A stretch of DNA of 64,000 nt, taken from assembly GCA_027622665.1 (NCBI GenBank), contig JAQBYT010000010.1, forward strand, positions 1 to 64,000. The letters run 5' to 3'. Positions 11,579 to 62,603 of this stretch are shown here, piece after piece. The notes under the pieces were generated by a model. The model had not been told where the DNA came from and ran no database searches. It saw only the letters and a list, made by a program, of their open reading frames with translations. Within the stretch, counting starts at the first letter, position 1. Every line of letters begins with the position of its first letter. The stretch comes from Verrucomicrobiota bacterium. Its GTDB lineage: Bacteria; Verrucomicrobiota; Verrucomicrobiia; Opitutales; Seribacteraceae. Both the position numbers and the translations under genes were made by a program.

Positions 11579-12526
11579 TTATTCCGGTGCGTCCTTGCCC
11601 GACCAAGCATCCCACCAAGAGGTGAATAGTTCGAGTTGTTCCTTGGCGTAGCCTAGTTGACTTGGGCTGAGGGCATCCGTTTCGTTGAAGTGAAGCTCGT
11701 AGGCGGCATCCCCCTTCAGGCTGAGGAGGTACTTGTAATAGAGCACCAGATCGGGTCCCTCGTCGAAGGTGGACAACACGGTCAACGCCTGCTCCAGTTC
11801 CTTGGCGAAGAAACGAGCGTCGAAGTCACCTGCGGCCGCTTCCTTGCATAGGCTGAAGTAGTGGAGGACTTCAGCGGGCAAAACATTACCGATACCCGTA
11901 ATGGCTCCAACCGCCCCACAATTGACCACACCATGAAAGACCTGAGTGTCCACACCGACCAACAAGGCCAAGGAATCGTCTTCGCTGGTAATGTGTTCGG
12001 CAGCGTAGGTCAATGAATCGGCGCCGCCGAATTCCTTGAAGCCAATAAGGTGGGGAAATTCAGCTCGAAGGTCGAAGAAGAGTTCGGCCTTTGTTTCGAA
12101 ACCGTAATATGGACTGTTGTAAATGATGGAGGGAAGCTCTTCTCCCGCAGCAAGGATTCCCGCAAAATGATGGCGCTGGGCAGCGGATGAACTGCCCCTG
12201 GAAAGTACCCGTGGAATAACCATTAGTCCCGCAGCTCCCACCTCCTTGGCATGGGCGGCGTGGGCGGCGGCAAGCTTTGGGTTTTGGGCACCCGTACCCA
12301 CGACGACGGGCACGCCCGACTCTACAAGCTTGGAAACACCCTCTTGCCTCTGGGCGTCAGTAAGCAGAGGCCAGTCCCCCATGGAACCACAGTAGACGAC
12401 CGCCGACATGCCGAGCTCCATCATTTCAAGCCCTTTGGCAACCAACGCATCGAAATCCGGCTCACGGTCCGCGTTACAAGGTGTCATGAGGGCGGGAATG
12501 ACCCCGTTGTAGATATTTAAATTCAT
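11579..12526 (-). CDS. hypD: DHDPS-family protein, probable 1-pyrroline-4-hydroxy-2-carboxylate deaminase (hydroxyproline catabolism)
   Basis: GVIPALMTPC, VYCGSMGDWPLLTD, IYNSPYYGF, GFKEFGG, FDEGPDLVLY, LHFNETDAL match the Sinorhizobium HypD/LhpC type as I recall it. Confidence 0.8.
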   Translation of the reverse strand: MNLNIYNGVIPALMTPCNADREPDFDALVAKGLEMMELGMSAVVYCGSMGDWPLLTDAQRQEGVSKLVESGVPVVVGTGAQNPKLAAAHAAHAKEVGAAGLMVIPRVLSRGSSSAAQRHHFAGILAAGEELPSIIYNSPYYGFETKAELFFDLRAEFPHLIGFKEFGGADSLTYAAEHITSEDDSLALLVGVDTQVFHGVVNCGAVGAITGIGNVLPAEVLHYFSLCKEAAAGDFDARFFAKELEQALTVLSTFDEGPDLVLYYKYLLSLKGDAAYELHFNETDALSPSQLGYAKEQLELFTSWWDAWSGKDAPE

Positions 12527-22670: not shown

Positions 22671-22727
22671 GTTAAAGGAGAGGAAAAGTTTGCCCAGGGG
22701 CATATTTTTCCTAACTTGGACTCCCTT

Positions 22728-25280
22728 ATGAAACCATCCTTCCGTCGGCTATTATTCATTTTCATCTCGGTCTGTGCGACCATATGCTCAGTCCAAGCTC
22801 AGTTCGAGACAACGGCGACGCCAGTCGATAAACTGAGTGTCCCAAAAGGATTCCAAGTGGAATTGCTATACACCGTGCCGAAAGCCGAACAGGGTTCTTG
22901 GGTCAACCTCTGCGTGGACGGCAAGGGACGCATAATCGCAAGCGACCAGTTCGGCGGCCTTTATCGCTTCCCCGCTCCATCTGCGGGTCAACCCCTGCAA
23001 GCCAAGGACATCGAGAAGGTGCCGGCCAAAATACGCGCCGCCAACGGTTTGCTTTGGGCCTTCGGGGCACTCTACGTTGGAATCAACGACTACGAGCGAA
23101 AAATGGAAAGCGGCTTGTACCGCGTGACCGACTCGAACGGCGACGACCAATTGGACAAAGTAGAAAAACTGCACGGCATGACTGCCCGCGGAGACCACGG
23201 TGTCCATGCGGTACTGCTAGCCCCGGACGGCAAATCGATTTACCTGATTACCGGCAACAACACCACGCCGGTCGAGACCGACGCCTCTCGAGTACCATTG
23301 CACTGGGGTGAGGATCACCTACTGCCACGCATGCCCGACGGCAGAGGTCATAATCGAGGTCGTTTGGCTCCCGGAGGCATCATATACAAGATTTCTCCCG
23401 ACGGAAAAGACTGGGAAATCGTCTCCTCCGGCTATCGCAATATCTTTGACGGCGCCTTCAACAAGGCAGGTGACTTGTTTACCTACGACGCGGACATGGA
23501 ATACGACTTCAACACCTCATGGTATCGTCCCACTCGCGTGTGCCACGTCACAAGCGGATCGATGTGGGGCTGGCGGAACGGCACGGGCAAACGACCCGAG
23601 TTTTATCCAGACACCCTGCCCCCTGTTATTAATATTGGGCCAGGCTCGCCCACCGGCGTAACCTTCGGCTATGATGCGAAGTTTCCCGCCAAATACCAAA
23701 AAGCCATGTACCTACTGGACTGGAGTTGGGGCAAAATACACGCCGTCCACTTGAAGCCGGAAGGCTCCTCCTACGTCGCGACCAAGGAAACCTTTATCAC
23801 CGGCAGTCCATTGCCTGTGTCCGACGCCATCATTCACCCCGAGGACGGTGCCATGTACTTCGCCATCGGAGGAAGAAAGGTACAGTCCGGCCTTTATCGA
23901 GTCACCTACGCAGGCAAGGAATCCACGGCACCGGCCAAGCACCAGACGGAGGTCAATGAACTCGCCCAGTTGCGGCGCAAACTCGAGGCCTTCCACATCA
24001 GTGCCGACCCCAAGGCTATTCAGACCGCTTGGCCGCACCTCGACCACAGTGACCGTTTCATCCGTTGGGCCGCCCTCACCGCAGTGCAGCTCCAACCCGT
24101 CAAAAAGTGGGCAAACCGCGCCTTGAAAGAAAAGAACCATGGCAAGCGGGTCGCCCTGCTTCTCGGATTGGCCAAGGTGACGGGTATCGACCCCGCCAAC
24201 CGACAACCAACCGATTCTCCGATGGATCAGGCCATGGCCAAGAAAATCTTTCAATCCCTCGACCAAGTGGACTGGGACCAATTGAACGAGGACCAACGCC
24301 TCACCTTGGTTCGCGCCTACCAGGTCGCCCTCGTGCGATTTGGCAAACCCGACGACCGAACAGCTCAAGGAATCGTCAAGCAACTGGATCCTCATTTCCC
24401 CGCTCCCACCTTCGATCAAAATTGGCTGCTCTGCGAGACCTTGGCTTTTCTCCAGGCTCCCTCCACGGCGACCAAGGGAATGAAACTGCTTCTGGATGCT
24501 CCCACCCAAGAGGAGCAAATCGAGTACGCTCGCTCCCTCCGCATGCTAAAAGCCGGCTGGAACAAGAAATTGCGGACAGCTTTTTTCAACTGGTTCCTAA
24601 AGGCCGCCAACTACCGGGGAGGAGCAAGTTTCAGCAAGTTCATCGAGTTTATTCGCAACGACGCCGTGGCCAGTCTGAGCAAGGCGGAACAAACAGAACT
24701 GAAGGCTCTTCTGGCCAAGAAACCCGAGAGCAAGACACCGTTCGAAATCATGGCCGAGTCGATGATCGGAAGGAAATACGTCAAGCTATGGAAACTGGAA
24801 GAGCTAAGCGAAGCCACCGCCGAACTGAAAGGCAGGAACTTCAAGCAAGGTCGCAAAATGTTTGCAGCCGGCGGTTGCTTCGCCTGCCACCGCTTCGGCA
24901 ACGAAGGAGGCATGACGGGTCCCGACCTGACCGGTGCCGGCGGACGTTACTCGACCCACGATCTGTTGGAACAGATCATCAACCCCAGCAAGGAGATCAA
25001 CGAACAATTCGTACCCACCATCGTAAAAATGAAAAACGGGGACGTCATGACTGGCGTAGTGGTTAATTTAAGCGGTGACCGCGTAACCTTGAACACCGAC
25101 ATGTTCGACCCCAATCAGCAAGTCAACGTCAACCGTCCAGACATCGCCAGCATTGGGCCATCCACCGTTTCGCCCATGCCCCCGGGCCTGTTGAACATGA
25201 TGCAAAAGGAGGAGATAAAGGACCTTGTCGCCTATATCCTCAGTGGTGGGAATCCCAAGCACGAGTCATTTCTCAAGTAA
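22728..25280 (+). CDS. PVC-type heme-binding protein: sugar-dehydrogenase-like propeller, HEAT repeats, cytochrome c
   Basis: VPKGFQVEL, GDHGVHA, SGYRNIFD, TYDADME, GPGSPTG; C-terminal CFACH, GPDLT, SPMPPGLL. Confidence 0.9.
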   Translation: MKPSFRRLLFIFISVCATICSVQAQFETTATPVDKLSVPKGFQVELLYTVPKAEQGSWVNLCVDGKGRIIASDQFGGLYRFPAPSAGQPLQAKDIEKVPAKIRAANGLLWAFGALYVGINDYERKMESGLYRVTDSNGDDQLDKVEKLHGMTARGDHGVHAVLLAPDGKSIYLITGNNTTPVETDASRVPLHWGEDHLLPRMPDGRGHNRGRLAPGGIIYKISPDGKDWEIVSSGYRNIFDGAFNKAGDLFTYDADMEYDFNTSWYRPTRVCHVTSGSMWGWRNGTGKRPEFYPDTLPPVINIGPGSPTGVTFGYDAKFPAKYQKAMYLLDWSWGKIHAVHLKPEGSSYVATKETFITGSPLPVSDAIIHPEDGAMYFAIGGRKVQSGLYRVTYAGKESTAPAKHQTEVNELAQLRRKLEAFHISADPKAIQTAWPHLDHSDRFIRWAALTAVQLQPVKKWANRALKEKNHGKRVALLLGLAKVTGIDPANRQPTDSPMDQAMAKKIFQSLDQVDWDQLNEDQRLTLVRAYQVALVRFGKPDDRTAQGIVKQLDPHFPAPTFDQNWLLCETLAFLQAPSTATKGMKLLLDAPTQEEQIEYARSLRMLKAGWNKKLRTAFFNWFLKAANYRGGASFSKFIEFIRNDAVASLSKAEQTELKALLAKKPESKTPFEIMAESMIGRKYVKLWKLEELSEATAELKGRNFKQGRKMFAAGGCFACHRFGNEGGMTGPDLTGAGGRYSTHDLLEQIINPSKEINEQFVPTIVKMKNGDVMTGVVVNLSGDRVTLNTDMFDPNQQVNVNRPDIASIGPSTVSPMPPGLLNMMQKEEIKDLVAYILSGGNPKHESFLK

Positions 25281-25307: not shown

Positions 25308-27917
25308 ATGAAAACAATCCTGCTCCTTCTTCTTTCCCTCTTTGCCGTTCTCTTCACGGAGGCGAAGGACGACCTCACCGTAAAGCCCATTCCAGATGAC
25401 GAGCGTGAACGCCTCGACCTCGACGCATTCTACCAAAAACGCGTGGTGGTGGGAGGTTTCTCTATCGTCGGATCGAAGAATGTCTCCGACTACGCATTGA
25501 GGGAGGCAGGCTATCTCATTCGCCAAATGATGGGTAGTCGGGACGACCTCCTGGCCAAAATGAACGCCAACAAAACTCGCCTAACCATCATGGCGAGTGA
25601 CGAGTACACCACCGACGTACCCGAGCACTCCCATCTCTACCCCGACCTCTATTGGGACAAGCGAGCCCGAGGACTGGGAGCCGATTCGGATAGCGATCGG
25701 CCCTGCGTTAGTTGTGGCGAGGAAAACCTCATCGAGATTCCAAGCGATCCATACGCAACCGAGAATATTCTCATCCATGAGTTCGCCCACGCCATCCATA
25801 TAATGGGATTGAACGACCTCGACTCCACTTTTCAGAACCGACTCGATGAAGTTTTCGCCAAAGCCATCAAGAAAGGCCTCTGGAAAGGCACCTACGCCGC
25901 TTCCAACGTAATGGAATACTGGGCCGAGGGCGTGCAGTCTTGGTATGGATCAAACCGACAGAACGACTTCGATCACAACCATGTAAACACTCGCAAGGAA
26001 CTACAGGCATACGATCCCGCCCTTGCCAAACTGATAGAGGAAGTGTTTGGGGAACGGGAGTGGGTTTACCGCAAACCTTCCGAGCGCAAACCCGCGTCCG
26101 CCCACATGAAAGGCTTCGAGTTGAGCAAGGAACCTGAATTCAAGTGGCCCCAGCGCCTACTCGACTGGCAAAAACTGTACGAACGAGGCCTCGTCAGCCT
26201 CGCCCCGGAAAACGCACCGGAAGTCGAACCTCTGCCAATCGAATCGAAGAAGGCCGAGCGGTCCGGTTTCTCAAATAGGAGAACGGAATTCTTTGTTCAT
26301 AATTACTCGGTTCATGCCTTACGACTCGAGTGGGTGAATTTCGAAGGCAAGCTATCTCAAACCAGCTACCTTCGCCCCGGTGATCAACGCCACTTCAACA
26401 GTTTCGCGACACATGTCTGGCAACTTAGCGAAGCGGAAACCCGCAAGCCCATCGCTCGATATGTTCTGCCCAAGGCAAAGGCCTCCCAGTTAAACGTCGG
26501 CAATGCTCATGTTCTGTCCGCATTAGCCTCCAAGCCCAAGGCAAAGCCAAACGTGCTCTTCGTTGCGGTGGACGACCTAAACGCCGACCTCGGTTGTTAT
26601 GGTCACCCTCTCGTCCACTCCCCCAACGTCGACCGCTTGGCAAAGAGTGGTCTGCGTTTTGACCGGGCCTATTGCCAATATCCCGTTTGCAACCCCAGCC
26701 GCTCTTCATTTTTAACAGGGTTGTACCCCGAGCAAACCGGGGTGCTCTCCAACGCAGGCAACTTTCGAAATAGGCATCCCGAGTTGGTCACCCTGCCACA
26801 ACTTTTCAAAAACAACGGCTACCATGTTTCCCGCATAGGCAAACTCTACCATTACGGAGTACCCCTCCAAATTGGAACACCCGGCGAGGATGACCCCGCA
26901 TCTTGGCACGAAACCGTCAACCCAATCGGCATAGACAGAACCCAGTTGGAACCGATCAAAACCCTCGTCAAGGGAAAGTACGGCGGTACCATTTCCTGGC
27001 GAATCGTCGACTCCAAGGACGAGGATCACACCGACGGCCAAGCCGCTCTTGCAGCAATCAAACTACTGGAGAAGAACCACCCGAAAAAAACAGGTAAACC
27101 ATTCTTCCTAGCCCTTGGTTTCTATCGACCCCACACCCCATACGTGGCACCCACTCATCACGCTAAGCACTATCCACTGAACAAGATAAAACCGGTTCTG
27201 GAAAAAGAGGGTGATCGCGACGACATCCCGCGGGTCGCCCTCCCCGATCGCCCCCACCAGCGTGAACTGACGATGGCCACGCGGAGGGAAATCATCCAGG
27301 CCTACTACGCATCCACAACCCTAATGGACGCCTGTTTGGGACGCGTCCTCGATGCCCTCGAGAGGTTGAAGCTAGACGACAACACCATCGTAGTGTTCCT
27401 CTCCGATCACGGTTATCACCTTGGGCACCACGGGCTTTGGCAAAAAAGCGATCTCTTCGAAGCCAGCGACCGCGTGCCTCTGATCATCTCGGTCCCCGGC
27501 ATGACAACTGCGGGTCGCGACACCTCTGCCATGACCGAGTTGGTCGACCTCTACCCCACTCTTGCCGACCTCTGCGGTCTACCCGCACCAGACCACCTTA
27601 TGGGAGACAGCCTGCTCCCCATTCTACAGCGCCCCCAGCGCCGCGGCAAGGAAGCGGCCTACACGGTGAGTCGCATACGGCCCAAAGGCTTTAGGACGAA
27701 AGCCCAACCCAATCCCCTCGGACGAACCGTGCGAACTGAACGCTACCGCTACACCGAGTGGTTGGGCGGCAAGCACGGGATCGAGCTTTACGACTACCAA
27801 GAGGACCCCATGGAATATGATAACTTAGCCGAGCACACGGAACACCAAGAAACCCGCAATGACCTCGCCGTCCTCCTTGCCAAGATGCAAGCAAAAGCGA
27901 TCGGTGAAAAGAAATGA
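25308..27917 (+). CDS. Exported fusion: HExxH zinc-peptidase-like domain, VHL beta-domain, formylglycine-dependent sulfatase
   Basis: Signal peptide; IHEFAHAIH (25776) with EYWAEG; WVNFEG...LRPG...SFATHVW (from 26331); PNVLFVAVDDL, CNPSRSSFLTG (26688), GKLYH, RPHTPY, SDHG. Confidence 0.85.
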   Translation: MKTILLLLLSLFAVLFTEAKDDLTVKPIPDDERERLDLDAFYQKRVVVGGFSIVGSKNVSDYALREAGYLIRQMMGSRDDLLAKMNANKTRLTIMASDEYTTDVPEHSHLYPDLYWDKRARGLGADSDSDRPCVSCGEENLIEIPSDPYATENILIHEFAHAIHIMGLNDLDSTFQNRLDEVFAKAIKKGLWKGTYAASNVMEYWAEGVQSWYGSNRQNDFDHNHVNTRKELQAYDPALAKLIEEVFGEREWVYRKPSERKPASAHMKGFELSKEPEFKWPQRLLDWQKLYERGLVSLAPENAPEVEPLPIESKKAERSGFSNRRTEFFVHNYSVHALRLEWVNFEGKLSQTSYLRPGDQRHFNSFATHVWQLSEAETRKPIARYVLPKAKASQLNVGNAHVLSALASKPKAKPNVLFVAVDDLNADLGCYGHPLVHSPNVDRLAKSGLRFDRAYCQYPVCNPSRSSFLTGLYPEQTGVLSNAGNFRNRHPELVTLPQLFKNNGYHVSRIGKLYHYGVPLQIGTPGEDDPASWHETVNPIGIDRTQLEPIKTLVKGKYGGTISWRIVDSKDEDHTDGQAALAAIKLLEKNHPKKTGKPFFLALGFYRPHTPYVAPTHHAKHYPLNKIKPVLEKEGDRDDIPRVALPDRPHQRELTMATRREIIQAYYASTTLMDACLGRVLDALERLKLDDNTIVVFLSDHGYHLGHHGLWQKSDLFEASDRVPLIISVPGMTTAGRDTSAMTELVDLYPTLADLCGLPAPDHLMGDSLLPILQRPQRRGKEAAYTVSRIRPKGFRTKAQPNPLGRTVRTERYRYTEWLGGKHGIELYDYQEDPMEYDNLAEHTEHQETRNDLAVLLAKMQAKAIGEKK

Positions 27918-29872
27918 AGATTGCCTCGGTCTCCTTGATCATCTGCCTTTCGCTTTCCACTTCTGTTGGGATCGCTAAAGCCAAGAAGGCGGAAAACATT
28001 CTCCTTCATCAACGCGACAACGGTGGTTGGCCAAAGAATTACGACTGGGAACGGGAACGGAGCACAGCTGAAAAGAAAAAACTAGCGGACATTAAAACCG
28101 CCGGCGACACGACATTCGACAACGGGGCCACGCACAACGAGGTGCGTTACTTGGCCAAGGCATTCAAGGAAACGGGCGACCCACGCTATAAGGAAGCCTG
28201 CCTGAAGGGCATCGAGTTTATGCTCAAAGCCCAGTACGCCAATGGTGGATGGCCTCAGCAATTTCCAAAACCATCCGGTTACTCAGTTCACATTACCTTC
28301 AACGACGGAGCCATGATCGGGGTGATGTCGACCTTGCGAGAAATTTTCCGGGACAGGAAGGCATATCCATTCGTCAGCGACGAGCTCCGCGAGCGATGTG
28401 GCAAAGCAGTCGAGAGAGGCATCCTCTGCATTTTGAAGTGCCAGATCGTGGTGGATGGGAAGAAGACCGCCTGGTGCGCCCAGCACGACGAGAAGACCTT
28501 GGCTCCGCGAGGGGCTCGCAGCTACGAACTGCCCTCCATCAGCGGTGCAGAGTCCGTCGGCGTGGTTCGCTTCCTAATGGAGATCGACGAGCCGTCGCGG
28601 GAAATCATTGCCGCCGTGCAAGGAGCCGTCCGCTGGTTCAACGAAGCCAAGCTGACCGGTATCCGAGAAATCCGGAAGGAAACCAAGGGTACGCCCAAGG
28701 GATGGGACAAGGTGGTGGTCAAGGATGCCTCGGCTCCGACCATTTGGGCACGATTCTACGGGATCGGGACGAACCGGCCCATCTTCTGCAGCCGCGATGG
28801 CATCCCTAGAAAAACCTTGGCGGAAATCTCCTACGAGCGACGCAACGGCTATAGTTGGCTAGGATACTACGCGGAGGACCTCTTGGCGAAGGCATACCCT
28901 GTCTGGCTGCAAAAGTGGGTGACCAACGTCAATTCACTCGCTCCACAAATGTTCTCCATCACCGAGCCGGTCATGTTCAACACAGTGAAAGCCGATGAGA
29001 TTTGCAGTGCCTTGCAAGTCTTCCCTCGAGACAACCCATGGAATCAAATTGTGGAAGATTGGCCGTTGCACAAAAACTCAAGGCAAATCATTTCCTCCAT
29101 CGGAGCCAGCAAACCGCTTCGCTACAACCCCGACATGGCATTCATCCTGATTCCGCCAAATCAAAAGCGCGTAAATCTGACCAAAGTTCATTATGCGGGA
29201 GAGTCGGACAAAGGACCTTTTCCCATTCCAGAAACCACTCCGATCGAAGGTTGGCCAATCCACTACAAGCGGCCAGACGGCAGAATGATTCATACGCTGG
29301 ATGAAGTGCAACGCGATCGGTTTAACAAGGGGGGAGATCGCCATGCAATTGTCGTGGACCCCGTCAATCGCATGCTGTATGAGTTCTTCGCCGTAAAAAA
29401 GACGGATACCGGATGGGAGGCGGGACAGGCTTCCGTGTTTGACCTCAAGACCAATAAGTTGCGTCCAGCAGACTGGACCAGTGCCGACGCTGCGGGTCTA
29501 CCCATTTTTCCCGCCGTGGTTCGGTACGACGAATTGAAGAGAGGCATCGTTCGTCACGCCATGCGGGTAACCGTTCGACGCACCCAACGCGCGTATGTCT
29601 CGCCGGCACGCCACTTCGCGAGTCAACTCACCGATCCGAATCTACCGCGAATGGGCGAGCGCATTCGGTTGAAGCAGAAGGTCGACGTCAGCAGTTTCCC
29701 CCCTGAAGTGCAGGCAATCCTCAAAGGGCTTAAGAAATACGGAATGCTTGTAGCCGACAACGGGATCGAGTGGGCAATCAGCGTCACCCCGGATGAACGT
29801 ATTCCGGTGCTGCACGAAGAACTCCGGCGAATCAAGGGATCCGATTTCGAGGTCGTCGTACGTCCACGTTGA
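27914..29872 (+). CDS. pelA: PL10-family pectate lyase fused to an uncharacterised C-terminal domain
   Basis: GGWPKN, TFDNGAT, QYANGGWPQ, ITFNDGAM, WCAQHD, ARSYELPS, WARFY, ERRNGYSW; second domain FPRDNPWN, GDRHAIVVD, TSADAAGLPIFP. Confidence 0.85.
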   Translation: MKIASVSLIICLSLSTSVGIAKAKKAENILLHQRDNGGWPKNYDWERERSTAEKKKLADIKTAGDTTFDNGATHNEVRYLAKAFKETGDPRYKEACLKGIEFMLKAQYANGGWPQQFPKPSGYSVHITFNDGAMIGVMSTLREIFRDRKAYPFVSDELRERCGKAVERGILCILKCQIVVDGKKTAWCAQHDEKTLAPRGARSYELPSISGAESVGVVRFLMEIDEPSREIIAAVQGAVRWFNEAKLTGIREIRKETKGTPKGWDKVVVKDASAPTIWARFYGIGTNRPIFCSRDGIPRKTLAEISYERRNGYSWLGYYAEDLLAKAYPVWLQKWVTNVNSLAPQMFSITEPVMFNTVKADEICSALQVFPRDNPWNQIVEDWPLHKNSRQIISSIGASKPLRYNPDMAFILIPPNQKRVNLTKVHYAGESDKGPFPIPETTPIEGWPIHYKRPDGRMIHTLDEVQRDRFNKGGDRHAIVVDPVNRMLYEFFAVKKTDTGWEAGQASVFDLKTNKLRPADWTSADAAGLPIFPAVVRYDELKRGIVRHAMRVTVRRTQRAYVSPARHFASQLTDPNLPRMGERIRLKQKVDVSSFPPEVQAILKGLKKYGMLVADNGIEWAISVTPDERIPVLHEELRRIKGSDFEVVVRPR

Positions 29873-31297: not shown

Positions 31298-31894
31298 CTG
31301 AAAAAACCTCGCCTAAAACGAGATGAAATTTGCGACACCTTGCGTCCAGAAATGCTTTCGGGGCAATGGGAAAGTAACCAACCCGTCCGAGAACATTCCT
31401 TGGCCGAACGCTTCGGCATAAGCCGGGGGCCGATCCGTGATGCGCTCCTGCAACTCACACAGGAAGGAGTCTTGATTTACAGGCAAAACAAGGGAGTGCG
31501 GGTGGGTTCTCCTCCCGACAAGGAAGACCGCGACATACTCTTAAAACTAAGACGAGATTTGGAGATTCACTCTCTCAAGAAGGTCTTGCCCAACTGGAAT
31601 TCGGAAGATGACGCTCACCTCAATCGTTTGCTTGAAAATTTAAACCTCGCCTCCGAGAAGTCCGATCTTCCAAAGGTGGCGGAAAGCGATCTTGCCCTCC
31701 ACCGTTACTGGGTATCGCAAGCTTCCAAGGAAATGGAAATTATTTGGCTTAGCATTACCGTTCGCATGCGAATGACTTACTCCCGGTTGACCAACTACAT
31801 GGAAATCTACCAAGAGCATGAACCCATTGTGGACGCCATTCATCGGCGTGACTTGCAAGCCGCTCAATCCTGGATCGAGAAAAACATCATTTGA
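31298..31894 (+). CDS. GntR/FCD-family transcriptional regulator (start uncertain)
   Basis: Winged HTH REHSLAERFGISRGPIRDALLQLTQEG; FCD motifs DLALH and EHEPIVDAI. Only an in-frame CTG (31298) precedes helix 1. Confidence 0.8.
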   Translation: MKKPRLKRDEICDTLRPEMLSGQWESNQPVREHSLAERFGISRGPIRDALLQLTQEGVLIYRQNKGVRVGSPPDKEDRDILLKLRRDLEIHSLKKVLPNWNSEDDAHLNRLLENLNLASEKSDLPKVAESDLALHRYWVSQASKEMEIIWLSITVRMRMTYSRLTNYMEIYQEHEPIVDAIHRRDLQAAQSWIEKNII

Positions 31895-32706
31895 TGAGAC
31901 TCTTACTAACAGCTGTGGCTCTTTTGCCCGTTCTTCTTAACGGACAGGACAAAGTCGATCAAAGGGCTCAAGGGGAACGCCTCTTTTCTTTAAAGGAACG
32001 CGGAATCCTCGAAAGCAAATGCTTGGCCTGCCACGGCGAGAAAGGCAAGAAGGTGAAAGGCGAATTCAACCTGACAACTCGCAACGACCTTCTGAAGGGA
32101 GGCGAGACCGCGGACGATGTTCTAGTTCCCTTTCATCCGGATAAAAGCCTCATCATGACCGCGATCCAATGGAAGGACGAGGACTATGAAATGCCCCCAA
32201 AGGAAAACGATCGGTTGACATACGAGCAGATTGAATGAGTTCGGCGCTGGATCAAGTTTGGCGCTCCTTGGCCCGATCAAGTTACCCAGGACCGCCACCT
32301 GCAGAAAGAAAGATCGATCCCAGTTACGGAAGAAGGCTTGCTGGTCTAGACAAGCGGCGGACTCTCGGAGGAGTGGACCTACAGGCGCTATAAGCCAGAG
32401 GACGTTTGGGCCTTCCAATCGGTGGTCAAACCGAAGGCTCCCGAAAGCGCATCCCATCCAGTCGATGCCTTTGTGAAAGAGAAACTAAGAGAGGCAAAAG
32501 TATCCCCCGCTCAGCAGGCGGATTTCCACACCCTCGTCAAGCGTGCTTACCTCGATCTGCATGGACTTCCTCCAACACCCTTCGAAATCTACCAGTTTCG
32601 CCTCGCATGGGACAAGGACCCCGACAGGGCTTGGAGCGACCTGATCGATCATTTACTCGACAGCCTTCATTACGGTGAACGTTCCGCCTAGCACTGGCTC
32701 GACGTC
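31894..32706 (+). pseudogene. Planctomycete cytochrome c + DUF1549 pseudogene, 3'-truncated
   Basis: One frame carries CLACH, MPPK, WIKFGAPW, HPVDAFV, RAYLDLHGLPP, YGERSA*HWLDV, interrupted by stops at 32236 (TGA), 32347 (TAG) and 32689 (TAG). Confidence 0.9.
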
Positions 32707-33686
32707 ACAGACGTCGCCATGGATTGGCTCAAGGCAAGGGATAAGAAAAAGCCTTTTTACTGAGCCTCCAGTTCAAGGCCGCCCGATACGATAAATTGCT
32801 CGCGGGGATACCCATCGCCCAACCGCCCACTCTCTACGAAGACGTTTACAGCAGCGACTCGAACCTCAAGAAGGAGTTCCTCAAAAGAACCAAGTTTCAC
32901 ATGTTGCTTTCCGGCGGCAATCCCAAGCAAAGCAAGGAAGGCAATGCCTATTACTTCCGTCATTTGAAAGACAAAGCGCCGAACGAAATGTGGAAACACG
33001 ACCCAAAGAGTGATAAGGACAGGATTCGCGTGGCCTACCAACACATGATCCACAAGTACATACGCTGCCTGACCGGCAACGACGACAACCTGAAGCGGGT
33101 CCTCGATTATTTAGACCAAGAAAAGCTGACCGAGGACACCATAGTCGTCTACACCTCAGACCAAGGCTATTGGCTGGGTCAGCACGGCTTCTACGACAAA
33201 CGACTCATCCTCGAGACCTCCATGTGCATACCATTCCTCATACGGTATCCTCGATTGATCAAGCCGGGCACTGTGAACAAGGATCTTTGCATAAACGTTG
33301 ACCTCGCCCCCACCCTATTAGAACTGGCCGGACTGACATCCCCCGGCGCCATGCAGGGACATAGCATGGTTTCCTTGCTTCAGGGCAAATCCCCTACCGA
33401 CTGGCGCCATTCCCAGTTCTACGCCTATTGGGGAACCCTCAATCATTACGGCATACGCACCGAACGTTACACCTACCTCAAACTCGCGGGCCACCCCGCA
33501 GAACTGTTCGATCGTGAAACCGACCCGGACCAAGTCCATAACGTCGCTGCCAACACCGAAAACAAACCGGTCGTCGAACGACTGGAAAAGGAACTGCAAA
33601 AACAGATTCGAGAAGTAGAGATCAGGAGATACGAACTGCCGACCTCCTCAGGGAAACAAGAAAAGATACATAAGGCTCGGCGGTAA
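32707..33686 (+). pseudogene. C-terminal half of a sulfatase, lacking the CxPSR catalytic region
   Basis: TDVAMDWLKARDKKKPF, frameshift near 32755, LSLQFKA, YTSDQGYWLGQHGFYDKR, NVDLAPTLL, YGIRTERY. Confidence 0.85.
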
Positions 33687-35744: not shown

Positions 35745-36647
35745 ATGAGCCTTAGCGCTACACTTGCCAACTCACCCCCCATCGATAGCGTCGGAGTAGC
35801 TGAGCGTGTGGCCAGATTCAGCACAAGAAGCATAAAGAAGTCATCCAAGATGGAGGCTCTAAAACTTGCCTTGTCCATGATAGACCTCACCACGCTCGAG
35901 GGTAAGGACACCGAGGACAAAGTGAGACGGCTCTGTTACAAGGCTCGGCATTTGCACGTCGATCTGCCCGACCTCCCCACGGTGGCCGCAGTGTGCGTCT
36001 ACCCTACGATGGTTAAAGTTGCCCGAGAGGAATTGAACGATTGCGGGGTCAAGGTAGCTTCCGTGGCAACCAGTTTCCCCAGCGGGCAAGACGATCTCTC
36101 TCTACGCATTCAGCAAACGAAGGGAGCGGTTCGAGATGGAGCGCAAGAAATCGACATGGTCATTTCCCGGGGACGTTTTCTGGCAGGTGATTACCAATAC
36201 GTGACCGATGAAATTGTCGCGGTAAAAGAAGCCTGCGGTGAGGCTCATTTAAAAGTCATCCTGGAAACCGGCGAACTGCACACTCTCGAAAACGTGCGAA
36301 AAGCTAGCGATCTCGCCATCCACGCCGGTGCCGACTTCATAAAAACTTCCACCGGCAAGGTGCAACCTGCGGCTACCATGGAAGTTACGCTCGTCATGCT
36401 GGAAGCCATTCGCGACCACTTTCAAGAAACAGGAAAAATCGTGGGTATGAAACCCGCAGGGGGAATTTCCAATTCAAAGATCGCCATTCGTTATCTAGTT
36501 ATGCTCCGTGAAACCCTTGGCAATCGCTGGCTAACGCCGAAGCTGTTCAGATTCGGCGCCAGCAGTCTCGCGAATGATCTTCTCATGCAAATCGTGAAAC
36601 AAAGTTCTGGCGTATACCAATCGTCGAACTATTTTTCCATTGACTGA
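35745..36647 (+). CDS. deoC: Deoxyribose-phosphate aldolase (long, eukaryote-like DERA type)
   Basis: IDLTTLEG, AAVCVYP, FPSGQ, EIDMVI, LKVILETGEL, FIKTSTGK, KPAGGI, FRFGAS. Confidence 0.95.
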   Translation: MSLSATLANSPPIDSVGVAERVARFSTRSIKKSSKMEALKLALSMIDLTTLEGKDTEDKVRRLCYKARHLHVDLPDLPTVAAVCVYPTMVKVAREELNDCGVKVASVATSFPSGQDDLSLRIQQTKGAVRDGAQEIDMVISRGRFLAGDYQYVTDEIVAVKEACGEAHLKVILETGELHTLENVRKASDLAIHAGADFIKTSTGKVQPAATMEVTLVMLEAIRDHFQETGKIVGMKPAGGISNSKIAIRYLVMLRETLGNRWLTPKLFRFGASSLANDLLMQIVKQSSGVYQSSNYFSID

Positions 36648-36661
36648 CCTCTTTTACCGAC

Positions 36662-38152
36662 ATGGCGAAAAAAAATAGCAACAAGTTGGATTTCGATACG
36701 GGCTGGCATTACGACCCCGCACCCGAATCCCCCGAACTCGCCAAGCTAAACGACAGCTACGACCTCTTTATCGACGGCAAATTCGTTAAGCCGGCGAGTG
36801 GGAAGTACTTCGACACGACCAGCCCTTCCAGTCACAAGACCCTCGCAAAAGTGGCCGAGGCCGACAAGCGAGACGTCGACAAAGCCGTGACCGCCGCCCG
36901 CAAAGCCTACGAAGGAACATGGTCTCGCCTCCGACCTTCGGAACGAGGTAAATACCTATTTCGCATCGCACGGGTGATTCAAGAACGATCTCGGGAACTG
37001 GCCGTTACGGAATCCTTGGACGGTGGAAAACCAATCCGAGAATCACGCGACATTGACCTTCCCCTCGTAGCCGCCCACTTCTTTTATCACGCGGGTTGGG
37101 CCGACAAGCTCTCTTACGCTTTTCCGGGACGAAAAGTAAGTCCATTGGGAGTTGCAGGACAAATTATACCGTGGAATTTCCCACTGTTAATGGCTGCTTG
37201 GAAAATCGCGCCCGCATTGGCCGCAGGTAACACAGTGGTCATCAAGCCTGCCGAAACCACTCCGCTGACATCCCTCAAACTGGCAGAGATCTTCCAGGAA
37301 GTCGACCTGCCTCCCGGAGTAGTGAACATATTAACCGGAGCAGGATCCACAGGTGAGTCTATCGTTCGTCATCCCGATGTGGACAAGATTGCTTTCACAG
37401 GATCGACCGAGGTGGGGAAGCTTATCCGCAAGACATTAGCGGGAACAGACAAGCGACTCACCCTTGAACTTGGTGGCAAGGCCGCAAACATAGTATTCGA
37501 GGACGCCGCCCTCGACCAAGCCGTGGAGGGCATAGTCAACGGCATCTTCTTCAACCAAGGTCATGTCTGCTGCGCGGGATCACGGTTACTCGTTCAGGAA
37601 TCAATTTCCAAAAAACTCGTCCGAAAGCTGAAAGACCGTATGGAAACTCTCATCGTGGGCGATCCGCTAGACAAAAACACTGACATCGGAGCAATCAATT
37701 CGAAAGAACAACTTAAAAAGATTCAAGGATACCTAAAGGTAGGCCAACGCGAGGGAGCTGAAATCTTCCAAACCTCATGCCCTCTACCCAAACGCGGAAA
37801 CTGGTGTCCCCCCACCCTATTCCTCAACGCCTCCCAGTCTCATCGCATTTCGCAGGAAGAAATTTTCGGCCCGGTGCTCGCCATTCAAACATTCAGAACC
37901 GTCGACGAAGCCATCGAAAAAGCCAACAATACGCCCTTCGGACTATCCGGCGGCGTCTGGACAGACAAAGGCGCCAAGGCTTTCCATGTAAGCGAACGAA
38001 TCAAGGCAGGCGTCGTATGGATTAACACCTTCAACAAATTCGACCCCGCCTCACCGTTTGGCGGATATAAGGAAAGTGGTTTCGGCCGAGAAGGCGGTCG
38101 CCACGGACTAGAAGCCTACCTCAACATCAGTGAAATGGGAGGAACCCGATGA
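36662..38152 (+). CDS. NAD-dependent aldehyde dehydrogenase, catalytic subunit (ALDH16-like)
   Basis: IIPWNFP, KPAE, FTGSTEVG, ELGGK, FNQGHVCCAG, EEIFGPV, GGYKESG. Confidence 0.92.
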   Translation: MAKKNSNKLDFDTGWHYDPAPESPELAKLNDSYDLFIDGKFVKPASGKYFDTTSPSSHKTLAKVAEADKRDVDKAVTAARKAYEGTWSRLRPSERGKYLFRIARVIQERSRELAVTESLDGGKPIRESRDIDLPLVAAHFFYHAGWADKLSYAFPGRKVSPLGVAGQIIPWNFPLLMAAWKIAPALAAGNTVVIKPAETTPLTSLKLAEIFQEVDLPPGVVNILTGAGSTGESIVRHPDVDKIAFTGSTEVGKLIRKTLAGTDKRLTLELGGKAANIVFEDAALDQAVEGIVNGIFFNQGHVCCAGSRLLVQESISKKLVRKLKDRMETLIVGDPLDKNTDIGAINSKEQLKKIQGYLKVGQREGAEIFQTSCPLPKRGNWCPPTLFLNASQSHRISQEEIFGPVLAIQTFRTVDEAIEKANNTPFGLSGGVWTDKGAKAFHVSERIKAGVVWINTFNKFDPASPFGGYKESGFGREGGRHGLEAYLNISEMGGTR

Positions 38153-39030
38153 TGAGCAGCAACTCCCCCGACAGACGGCTCTCAGTCGCCAAAACCTACA
38201 AATTGTACATTGGCGGCAAATTCCCCCGAACCGAATCAGGTAGAACCTTTGAGGCCCGCTCACACTCGGGTGACCTTCTCGCCAACCTCTGCCGAGCCTC
38301 CCGCAAGGATTTGCGCGAAGCTGTCGTAGTCGCTCGAAAAGCCTTTCCCGGTTGGGCAAAGCGATCGGGTTACAATAGAGGACAAATCCTATATCGAATC
38401 GCCGAAATAATGGAGGGTCGGATTGATCAATTGGTGAACGAAATATCTTCTCAGGGCGTGGCCCAAAAAAAGGCGCTCAAAGAAGTCGAGACCTCCATCG
38501 AACGCTTTGTGTATTATGCAGGGTGGGCCGACAAATATGCCCAAATCCACGGTTCGGTAAATCCGGTATCTACATCACACTTTAATTTTTCCGTCCCGGA
38601 ACCGATGGGAATCGTGGGAATAATCTCCCCTAACGAACCTTCTCTACTGGGTCTTGCCACACTACTTGCGCCAGCATTGGCGGGTGGAAACGTCGTCATC
38701 TCTCTTGTTTCGGAAACTCGTCCGCTAGCACCAGCAACTTTTGCCGAGATCCTCCACTCTTCGGACGTACCCGCCGGAGTAGTCAACATTCTGACGGGAT
38801 TCCGCAAAGAACTTCTTTCCGATTTCTCCACCCACATGGACGTGAATGCGATCCTTGCCGCGGATTTATCGCTCAAGGAAAGAAAACTTACTGAGGAAAA
38901 CTCCGCCCTGAACCTAAAACGGGTGGTGCATCTACCGGCCAAGGCCATTTCCGCTACGGATAATCCCGGAATATCTCCCATTCTCAGCTTACAGGAAACC
39001 AAGACTACTTGGCATCCGGTCGGGACCTAA
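38149..39030 (+). CDS. Short non-catalytic aldehyde-dehydrogenase-fold subunit
   Basis: KLYIGGK, RGQILYRIAE, YYAGWADK, EPMGIV, GVVNILTG, terminal KTTWHP; no ELGGK or catalytic Cys domain; ATGA overlap with the upstream gene. Confidence 0.88.
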   Translation: MMSSNSPDRRLSVAKTYKLYIGGKFPRTESGRTFEARSHSGDLLANLCRASRKDLREAVVVARKAFPGWAKRSGYNRGQILYRIAEIMEGRIDQLVNEISSQGVAQKKALKEVETSIERFVYYAGWADKYAQIHGSVNPVSTSHFNFSVPEPMGIVGIISPNEPSLLGLATLLAPALAGGNVVISLVSETRPLAPATFAEILHSSDVPAGVVNILTGFRKELLSDFSTHMDVNAILAADLSLKERKLTEENSALNLKRVVHLPAKAISATDNPGISPILSLQETKTTWHPVGT

Positions 39031-61129: not shown

Positions 61130-61859
61130 TCATTTTTTCTTACCCCAGCGCGTTTCCCAGATGGCGGCAAGTTGTTCGACACGTTCGGGGTACTTGGGGG
61201 CAATGTTATTTGTTTCAGTGCGATTCTCGGCGAGATGGTAGAGGGCCCAGGGACGCCTACCTTCGCGGACGATCTTGTACTCGCCCTTCACGATGGCATG
61301 AGTACCGCCGTGGTTGAAGACGTAGGCGTGGTCGCGATCGACGGTCTTGCCTTTAAGGATCGGGACCAGCGAGAAGCTTTCGTGGGGTTTGGTTTCCTTG
61401 CCGTTGAATTCCTCGGGGTACTCAGCCTCGGCGAGCTCTAGACAGGTGGCCATCATATCGACGACGTGTCCTCGCTGTTTTGAGATGGAGCCAAGTTTGG
61501 TCTTCAAGCCGGCGGGCCAATGGACGATGGCGGGCGTGCAGGCCCCTCCGTTGTGGACATTCATCTTGTAGCGGCGCATGGGGGTGTTTTGGGCATTGGC
61601 CCAGTTGTGCCCTACGCTGCCGTAGGTCATGGGGCCGCCCATGGGGACGTCGAACTTGTCGCCCACGGCAATGGTCTTACCGGCTTTCTTGGCCTTGGCG
61701 AGTATGTTGTTTGCCGTGTTCCAGCCGTTGCCGCCGAGGTGTTCGGGACAGGCCCCGTTGTCATGGAAGTAGATGATGAGGGTGTCGTCGAGTTGCTTTG
61801 TTTTTTCGAGGGCTTGGACAATATTGCCCACAGCTTGGTCCATGTGGTCGACCATGGCC
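61130..61859 (-). pseudogene. C-terminal half of an arylsulfatase
   Basis: MVDHMDQAVG, DNGA, WANAQNTPMR.YK, HVVDMMATCLELA, LYHL..NRTE; no CxPxR N-terminus or signal peptide. Confidence 0.85.
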
Positions 61860-61924
61860 TCTCCCCCCGCTGGAGGATCGCGTCAAGCCATGGGACACCA
61901 TAGACCACAAGCCATGGCGTATTC

Positions 61925-62603
61925 TGACGAAGGGCTCGCACAGGTAGCAAAGCTAAAGAACATCGTTTCACTACATCTTGGAGGAACCAAGATAACTGGT
62001 GCGGGCATGGTACACTTGAAGGGATTGAAACAACTTCAGCGACTTCATCTAGAGAAAACCGAAGTTGACGACGACGGTCTCGCCGAACTCGGAGGTTTAT
62101 CCGAGCTCGAATACCTTAATCTCCATGCCACAAAAACAACTGACGCAGGATTGGAGAATCTGGTCGGTCTCAACAAACTTAGATGCCTCTACCTTTGGCA
62201 AACCAAGGTTACCGATGAGGGGGTGACTAAACTTGGGAAGGTTCTTCCCGATCTCGTCATAGATACCGGAGCCGACCTCTCCACGGTCACTGCCTCAGAA
62301 CCTCCTGCAAAAAAAGTAGACATCAAATGGAATCCCGCCGGGACCGTGGGACCGCCCCGTTCACAAAACGGTCCAAATACCGCCATTCACTTCGAAAACA
62401 AGTCGGGGAGGAAAGTAAAGGTGTTCTGGCTCAAGTACACGGGCGGTTTGCAATTATACGGCGAATTGAATGAAGGCGATACTCGACGGCAAAATACCTA
62501 CGCGGGGAACGTATGGGTAATCACCGATGAGAAAGACAACCGGCTCGGACACTTCATCTCCGTAAAAGACGATGGACTGGCTATTGTCCCGCTAATAAAG
62601 TAA
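61925..62603 (+). pseudogene. 5'-truncated leucine-rich-repeat + VHL beta-domain gene
   Basis: LRR units L..L.L..T.(V/I)TD.G; then FENKSGRKVKVFWLKYTG..QLYGEL..G...QNTY.GNVW. The N-terminal part of the listed ORF is derived from sulfatase DNA. Confidence 0.75.

Follow-up and report, generated by a model that had tools for sequence, protein, structure and literature searches.

The closest described enzymes to the protein reported here are, by fold, the zinc endopeptidases PPEP-1, PPEP-2 and PPEP-3 (PDB 5a0p, 6fpc and 9g0j), secreted proteins of Firmicutes whose most distant described pair is 32% identical, according to a phylogenetic study whose main text names neither Planctomycetes nor Verrucomicrobia (PMC8610288). 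The roles of the active-site residues have been reported for PPEP-1, together with an S1 proline pocket formed by a proline, an aromatic residue and a tryptophan (Pro, Trp and Tyr in PPEP-3; PMC12828418). In human pVHL, the hydroxyl of hydroxyproline (Hyp) bonds Ser111 and His115, its carbonyl bonds Tyr98, and His110 contributes through its backbone (PMC9528729); Trp117 has a structural role as well (PMC3688787). Here we describe a gene that joins a domain of each kind to a sulfatase. It lies at positions 25308-27917 (+) of the window, that is, the 64,000 nucleotides analysed (positions 1-64,000, forward strand, of contig JAQBYT010000010.1, assembly GCA_027622665.1), and is a single open frame encoding 869 residues. 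We consider it somewhat probable that the product is an exported Pro/Hyp-directed zinc endopeptidase in which the VHL domain would serve as a substrate anchor, feeding the Hyp pathway of the host and carrying a carbohydrate sulfatase as a passenger.

The presence of three domains behind one predicted signal peptide, as first read from the DNA, was borne out. The N-terminus is hydrophobic (11-residue hydropathy up to 3.2), a comparable one was found in 72 of the 91 relatives starting with Met that were recovered with residues 20-406, and there is no membrane segment further along the protein. Pfam placed VHL at residues 321-382 (26.3 bits, cut-off 21), Sulfatase at 414-757 and SGSH_C at 706-862, whereas no family exceeded its cut-off in residues 1-290. 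The fusion is not confined to this assembly: the entire stretch lies in a single contig of an independent run from another study (X12), ungapped and with 7 substitutions, and the fused gene is present in close relatives, which rules out an assembly artefact as its origin. Contigs from RNA libraries, which may contain DNA, cross both domain junctions, the one between VHL and sulfatase being bridged in two libraries; these contigs cover parts of the gene and cannot show transcription. The runs containing the gene are marine or estuarine, the nearest named records belong to uncultured Opitutales, and scans for promoters and terminators gave counts no better than chance.

Structure prediction recovered both a PPEP-like and a pVHL fold. 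Residues 20-406 were modelled with AlphaFold from an alignment of 96 relatives (pLDDT 94.9, pTM 0.90), and this model was used instead of a single-sequence one (pLDDT 35). As the Foldseek listing was filled by pVHL rows, the fold of the peptidase domain was assigned with VIA-align over 48,161 chains: residues 20-230 matched PPEP-2 best (Z 14.3, 3.3 A, 171 aligned), followed by PPEP-3 (Z 13.4), anthrax lethal factor (Z 12.6) and MtfA (PF06167; Z 8.3). Complex prediction with the peptidase and VHL halves scored 0.00 and was not used. The only recurring PDB sequence matches of this domain were PPEP-1/Zmp1 (E 0.3 from the single sequence) and lethal factor. The similarity of its HEFAH...EYWAE pattern to zincins of the lethal factor and PPEP type, noticed in the original prediction, was supported. 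The HExxH motif spans residues 157-161 and Glu203 is the third zinc ligand; H157, E158, H161, E203 and Y196, which correspond by alignment to the zinc ligands, base and oxyanion tyrosine (Tyr178) of PPEP-1 (E 0.002), are invariant in 96/96 and in 39/39 aligned relatives. Judging from the fold and this invariant catalytic set, the domain is very probably an active zinc peptidase.

By sequence, the domain falls outside the described PPEP family, to whose members it is 18-20% identical in structural alignments, and it might work like a PPEP at best. It has an S-loop six residues shorter than that of the PPEPs and a 60-residue C-terminal extension, precedes a VHL domain and a sulfatase, is found in bacteria of the Planctomycetes-Verrucomicrobia-Chlamydiae (PVC) group instead of Firmicutes, and probably has a foraging role. 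The likeness to lethal factor and ATLF (PF07737) lies in the zincin fold: the Pfam score is below the gathering cut-off (19 of 27.4 bits), identity is 12%, the protective-antigen-binding and other toxin domains are absent, and the host is a free-living marine bacterium.

A preference of the peptidase for Pro or Hyp is probable by analogy with its nearest folds and from the company it keeps. In a marginal alignment to PPEP-1 (E 0.002), P112, Y115 and W116 fall at the S1 pocket of the PPEPs, and they are conserved in the relatives (P in 96/96, Y/F in 95/96, W in 96/96), and A120, Y149 and I154 align to further S1/S1' positions. The family is large (6100 matches among the 7999 scored candidates of the search with residues 20-406) and is carried by 44 of the 251 Planctomycetota genomes sampled. 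In a tree of 191 domains it is fused to a prolyl isomerase in 34 rows and to VHL in 60, and further partners include DPP-IV/S9, GH127 and GH51. One such architecture, GH127, peptidase and cyclophilin in a single chain of about 1250 residues (L071:7178-11278, P0060, P0070 and P0071), would suit arabinosylated hydroxyproline glycoproteins. The peptidase also has a split paralogue in the host genome (G000:C4:157290-158219; L127:6559-8475), which is joined to a 3-keto-disaccharide hydrolase domain.

The link to Hyp comes from gene neighbourhoods of the family. The bacterial Hyp pathway comprises an epimerase, a D-amino-acid-oxidase-family enzyme, a deaminase of the dihydrodipicolinate synthase (DHDPS) family and an aldehyde dehydrogenase (PMC4113996). 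We examined the best 80 of 575 confirmed genome loci, the best 80 of 542 metagenome loci and 30 loci from an even sample of Planctomycetota. A Hyp epimerase, an LhpC-like DHDPS protein or both adjoin the peptidase in 5/80, 7/80 and 1/30 of these loci, respectively. The 13 loci fall in eight groups of a FastTree of the 191 domains and represent eight changes on it, although its backbone is poorly supported. The label LhpC-like reflects 41-65% identity among the proteins found beside an epimerase in L065, L084, L177, L192 and L205; in L077, L097, L202 and L212 there was no epimerase within the fetched stretch. The cleanest operon (L205:4845-9543) encodes a deaminase-like protein, the peptidase with a cyclophilin, the epimerase and an oxidase, and in L084 and L192 the peptidase gene lies between those of a deaminase-like protein and the epimerase, after which comes a DPP-IV peptidase bearing a VHL domain, with a complete pocket in L084. 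Three candidates were dropped from the count: L064, whose DHDPS protein is KdgD; L217, with a DHDPS match of only 27%; and L089, with an oxidase alone (34%), 5 kb away.

An epimerase beside the peptidase in 3 of the 80 genome loci compares with 0.17 expected (P 7e-4). In an unbiased screen of 138 loci outside the clade of our protein against the 2503 open reading frames of the host genome, the epimerase was the top neighbour (8 loci; the next, 5 and 4); this screen divides the count of a multi-copy family among its members and cannot detect genes that the host genome lacks. The family members in Hyp operons are 54-58% identical to our peptidase and share its catalytic cleft residues. In the host itself, contig C4 carries the epimerase and oxidase genes, and a HypD-like deaminase is encoded in the window. 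As a precedent, the collagenase of the Streptomyces coelicolor HypR regulon is also a secreted zinc peptidase tied to Hyp catabolism; as reported, it differs in belonging to family M9, in being tied by regulation and in having no VHL domain (PMC6608401).

The VHL segment aligns without gaps to residues 68-125 of pVHL from the PDB (E 0.01, or 2e-6 with a family profile). W342, S365, H369 and W371 take the places of W88, S111, H115 and W117, of which the two tryptophans wall the pocket, and Thr352 takes that of Y98, in agreement with the original prediction; the equivalents of N78 and G93 are also present. The fold is clearly that of VHL: residues 295-386 of the model superpose on pVHL with a Z of 11.7 (2.0 A, 88 aligned) and a Foldseek E of 9e-8 (probability 1.00). 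Unlike human pVHL (PDB 1lm8 and 4ajy), our protein has no elongin box and no alpha domain, which binds elongin C, the match ending at pVHL residue 156 before the sulfatase; instead, the beta domain is joined to a predicted exported hydrolase.

The equivalents of W88, S/T111, H115 and W/F117 are invariant in 96 close relatives. Among 57 non-redundant VHL domains linked to peptidases, 56 retain His115 and 34 retain Tyr98. Proteins combining a sulfatase with VHL have Ala at His115 in 53/53 cases (7 non-redundant), with Arg at Tyr112 and Tyr98 kept, and two GH127-VHL proteins have Ala at His115 too. Since Ala is accepted throughout the sulfatase-VHL proteins, His115 is not needed for the VHL fold. 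In these alignments the identity of residue 115 tracks the partner enzyme and our protein has a pocket of the peptidase type; the partner groups are sets of kin and represent few independent events. Hyp binding by this VHL copy is a possible but tentative assignment. A broader reading, which we regard as unlikely, is that bacterial VHL beta domains are modular Hyp readers retuned to their partners, with Ser/Thr and His on peptidases and the His-to-Ala change on sulfatases and GH127. The peptidase VHLs (our protein and the DPP-IV fusions) would then read free Hyp, and those of sulfatases (with the added Arg) and GH127 arabinofuranosidases would read substituted hydroxyls. Our protein would be the first of an undescribed PPEP-like family cutting at Hyp, and its fusion to a sulfatase would make it a tool, in one chain, for the sulfated glycoproteins of algal walls.

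Other VHL proteins were observed in the course of this comparison. The sulfatases with a C-terminal VHL domain form a family of 53 clusters in which Arg at Tyr112 and Ala at His115 are invariant; one member is encoded in the host genome (L003:1-1725; G000:C65), and this family is a candidate binder of sulfated ligands. The GH127 arabinofuranosidase-type proteins with a terminal VHL domain (L019:1-1860 and L022:1438-3237) come from two related genomes; no full-length GH127 gene was found in the host genome. A second VHL domain of the window, at 61773-62603 (+), follows leucine-rich repeats, keeps Tyr98 and has Asn at His115; the start of its gene overlaps a sulfatase fragment on the opposite strand. 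P0219-P0229 (900-2100 residues) contain 8-12 VHL-like domains in tandem, many with full pockets.

Taken together, the reading that we favour proceeds as follows. The N-terminus suggests that the protein is exported, and the fold with its complete, invariant catalytic set points to zinc-dependent peptide hydrolysis. The nearest folds, the partly kept S1-pocket residues, the fusion partners and the operons of relatives suggest a preference for Pro or Hyp, so that Pro/Hyp-rich proteins such as algal wall glycoproteins or collagen-like material would be digested for food. The VHL domain, with its Ser/His pair, may anchor the substrate chain by its Hyp, probably in a weaker or altered manner without the tyrosine, and the freed Hyp would pass to the epimerase, oxidase and deaminase, whose genes are present in the host genome. 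The sulfatase, which the distribution of the fusion shows to be a later addition, would desulfate sugars on its own.

Several observations weigh against this reading. Regarding specificity, the PPEP alignment is marginal (E 0.002) and lacks six S-loop residues, and for these reasons sequence alone does not settle what the peptidase cuts; a Z of 12.6 was obtained with lethal factor, which is not Pro-specific, and the peptidase is also fused to GH10, esterase, amidohydrolase and Sel1 domains. Regarding the pocket, Y98 is Thr352 here and Tyr in only 27 of the 96 close relatives, and VHL-like domains, with 6163 clusters at E 0.001, are common. The W/S-T/H/W set occurs in 299 of 391 VHL domains from the top 150 proteins without the peptidase. 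This set is thus the default of the VHL family, and its conservation alone does not single our protein out. Regarding the Hyp link, Hyp genes adjoin none of the 22 loci of our protein's own syntenic clade. They occur in 2 of 60 VHL-bearing rows compared with 11 of 131 without VHL, and no Hyp neighbour appears in the stretch fetched for 147 of the 160 genome and metagenome loci or for most of the other loci. The association of the peptidase with hyp genes across genomes, proposed as a check in the original prediction, is strong (epimerase in 22/44 carriers compared with 19/207, odds ratio 9.9). However, pectate lyase gave nearly the same result (9/44 and 7/207, odds ratio 7.3), and because this control behaved alike we set genome co-occurrence aside as weak. 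Further counts were 26/43 with VHL, 26/36 without and 19/301 in the background for the epimerase; among relatives, 12/13 compared with 2/28 for the epimerase and 10/13 compared with 2/28 for pectate lyase. The epimerase co-occurrence mostly reflects lifestyle and kinship. Finally, the links of a pectate lyase and of hypD to our gene are local synteny, as described below.

These points lend themselves to a second explanation, in which the protein is a general secreted peptidase whose VHL domain has another ligand or serves only to stabilise the peptidase; the Hyp link would then belong to other branches of the family. Besides the loss of Y98 and the lack of Hyp neighbours in the clade, it draws on a clade-specific arginine (R356, at the position of P102, in 94/96) which, like the clade-specific D359 and H360, could make an interdomain contact. 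The pTM of the model points to a fixed arrangement, and VHL domains elsewhere accompany TIR, MACPF, C2, lipase, ricin-B and other partners. We nevertheless judge it unlikely: the catalytic cleft residues are common to the members in Hyp operons, and His115 and Ser/Thr111 are invariant among close relatives though dispensable elsewhere.

The sulfatase domain appears to be intact. Its S1 motifs CxPxR, Asp-Asp, GKxxH and SDHG are complete at 461, 422, 511 and 699 (Pfam, 171 bits), and its best PDB matches are 6hhm (E 7e-71) and then iduronate-2-sulfatase, from which it differs in being fused behind a peptidase. The structure 6hhm is P18_S1_7, an ulvan xylose-2-sulfatase (PMC9096561), and this PDB comparison tentatively suggests SulfAtlas subfamily S1_7 for the domain. 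The conserved unit, however, is peptidase plus VHL, usually a standalone PVC protein: the relatives found with residues 20-406 are mostly of about 400 residues and have no sulfatase. When the search was limited to lengths near that of the complete protein, the same three domains were found in 5 of the 120 clusters listed, all 82-89% identical. Thirteen of 41 related genomes carry the peptidase at E < 1e-70; it is fused to VHL and sulfatase in G000, G003, G005, G006, G008 and G013 (and in G004, split by contig ends), and G007, G011, G012, G015 and G021 have the standalone form at the same site. Only a few Opitutales relatives carry the sulfatase fusion. At the linker position, standalone homologues of the sulfatase have a signal-like stretch; the linker itself, about 15 residues long, looks like a signal peptide that has been shortened. 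The fusion was probably a recent one between neighbouring genes.

This history bears on the proposal that the three domains act together on one sulfated, Hyp-rich glycoprotein, with VHL steering both enzymes. Such glycoproteins reportedly occur in green algae, the fusion is intact in the six genomes named (and in G004 across the contig break), and there are separate peptidase-sulfatase fusions with other domain orders (P0096 and L217). Against it, the fused forms are 82-90% identical, which represents one recent event. With about 106 sulfatase starts in the host genome, chance sulfatase neighbours and fusions are expected; in 9 of 80 loci the five genes closest to the peptidase include a sulfatase, by our own estimate no more than that density gives. 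Furthermore, the VHL pocket is unlike those of VHL domains fused to sulfatases, the substrate of the sulfatase's best solved match is a polysaccharide, and the next gene, a PL10 pectate lyase, has a similar lineage-limited fusion. The idea of a single evolved machine, put forward in the original prediction, was not supported, the sulfatase being absent from most family members and the VHL pocket being of the peptidase type; we consider joint action of the three domains distinctly unlikely.

The surroundings of the gene are summarised in Table 1. The conserved order at this site is DUF1501, CxxCH haem protein, peptidase-VHL, GntR, PSCyt/PSD1, DUF1501 and sulfatases. Only in the fused lineage do a sulfatase domain and the pectate lyase come between peptidase-VHL and the genes that follow. 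The suggested coupling to a pectate lyase stands insofar as the stop codon of our gene overlaps the ATG of the PL10 gene at 27914; as a neighbour of fused forms only, this gene reflects local synteny. Likewise, a hypD does exist in the window, but it lies 13 kb away on the opposite strand and shares the same contig and spacing only in G003 and G005, of the same genus; in seven further genomes with a match it is on other contigs. We take its best PDB match, 5czj, to be Sinorhizobium meliloti HypD (the tool's label is dihydrodipicolinate synthase).

Table 1. Coordinates of the domains of the 869-residue protein and of neighbouring genes discussed in the text.
Feature	Position	Strand	Basis or remark
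Predicted signal peptide, residues 1-19	25308..25364	+	Hydrophobic core; export would follow
Putative PPEP/lethal-factor-fold zinc metallopeptidase domain, residues 20-290 (H157, E158, H161, E203, Y196)	25365..26177	+	VIA-align, alignments
VHL beta domain, approximately residues 314-397 (W342, S365, H369, W371, T352)	26247..26498	+	Pfam PF01847, Foldseek, VIA-align
Linker of about 15 residues, possibly a remnant of the sulfatase's own signal peptide	26499..26546	+	Standalone relatives stop just before
Formylglycine-type (S1) sulfatase, residues 414-869, Cys461 in CxPxR	26547..27917	+	Pfam, motifs, PDB match
PVC-type CxxCH haem protein, upstream neighbour conserved across the host's family	22716..25280	+	Neighbourhood comparison
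PL10 pectate lyase, overlaps the stop codon of the 869-residue gene; adjoins fused forms only	27914..29872	+	Pfam, synteny
HypD-like DHDPS-family deaminase, 13 kb upstream, separate gene run	11579..12526	-	E 7e-143 to PDB 5czj

Other features of the window are recorded here for completeness. The PL10 pectate lyase has an extra tail of 307 residues that matches no Pfam family and of which neither the genome nor the fetched loci have a second copy; relatives have instead a 350-residue pectate lyase followed by a MatE gene. At 31891-33686 (+) there are a PSCyt fragment, short frames and a sulfatase without its N-terminal half, where the PSD1 protein of G005 and G013 is intact and accompanied by a DUF1501 protein and a sulfatase, so a deletion seems to have occurred in the host genome. 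At 35745-39030 (+), a DeoC-type aldolase precedes two aldehyde dehydrogenase frames, one full and the other an overlapping copy with the N-terminal part only (293 residues).

A role in the processing of the cell's own exported proteins (release of adhesins as by PPEP-1, or MtfA-like regulation) instead of food is highly improbable: the characterised PPEPs are reported to cleave surface proteins of their own cells (PMC8610288), 35 of 39 members show a weak match to Peptidase_M90 and the conserved neighbours in the clade are PVC haem and DUF1501 proteins, but the relatives inside Hyp catabolic clusters and the fusions to polymer-degrading enzymes fit foraging, and no Pro-rich neighbour turned up, in the absence of a search aimed at such neighbours.

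In summary, our analysis, whose favoured outcome is the exported Pro/Hyp-directed endopeptidase, shifts the emphasis from the triple fusion to a PPEP-like peptidase family tied to Hyp catabolism and to a partner-dependent VHL pocket; the interpretation given in the original prediction is partly supported. In a literature search that excluded subscription journals we found no characterised bacterial VHL ligand and no description of this peptidase family; bacterial VHL domains are mentioned in PMC7736814 and PMC9002001, with no ligand in the portions available of either, and the peptidase-VHL clusters of the ESM Atlas bear automatic names only, the peptidase appearing as hypothetical proteins. 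The family is large and uncharacterised. If its VHL domain reads Hyp in a foraging enzyme, it would represent a nutritional counterpart to the oxygen-sensor pocket of animals; and if the peptidase cuts at Pro or Hyp, it would supply a missing extracellular step in the bacterial turnover of collagen and of algal and plant wall glycoproteins, as well as a useful specificity for proteomics.

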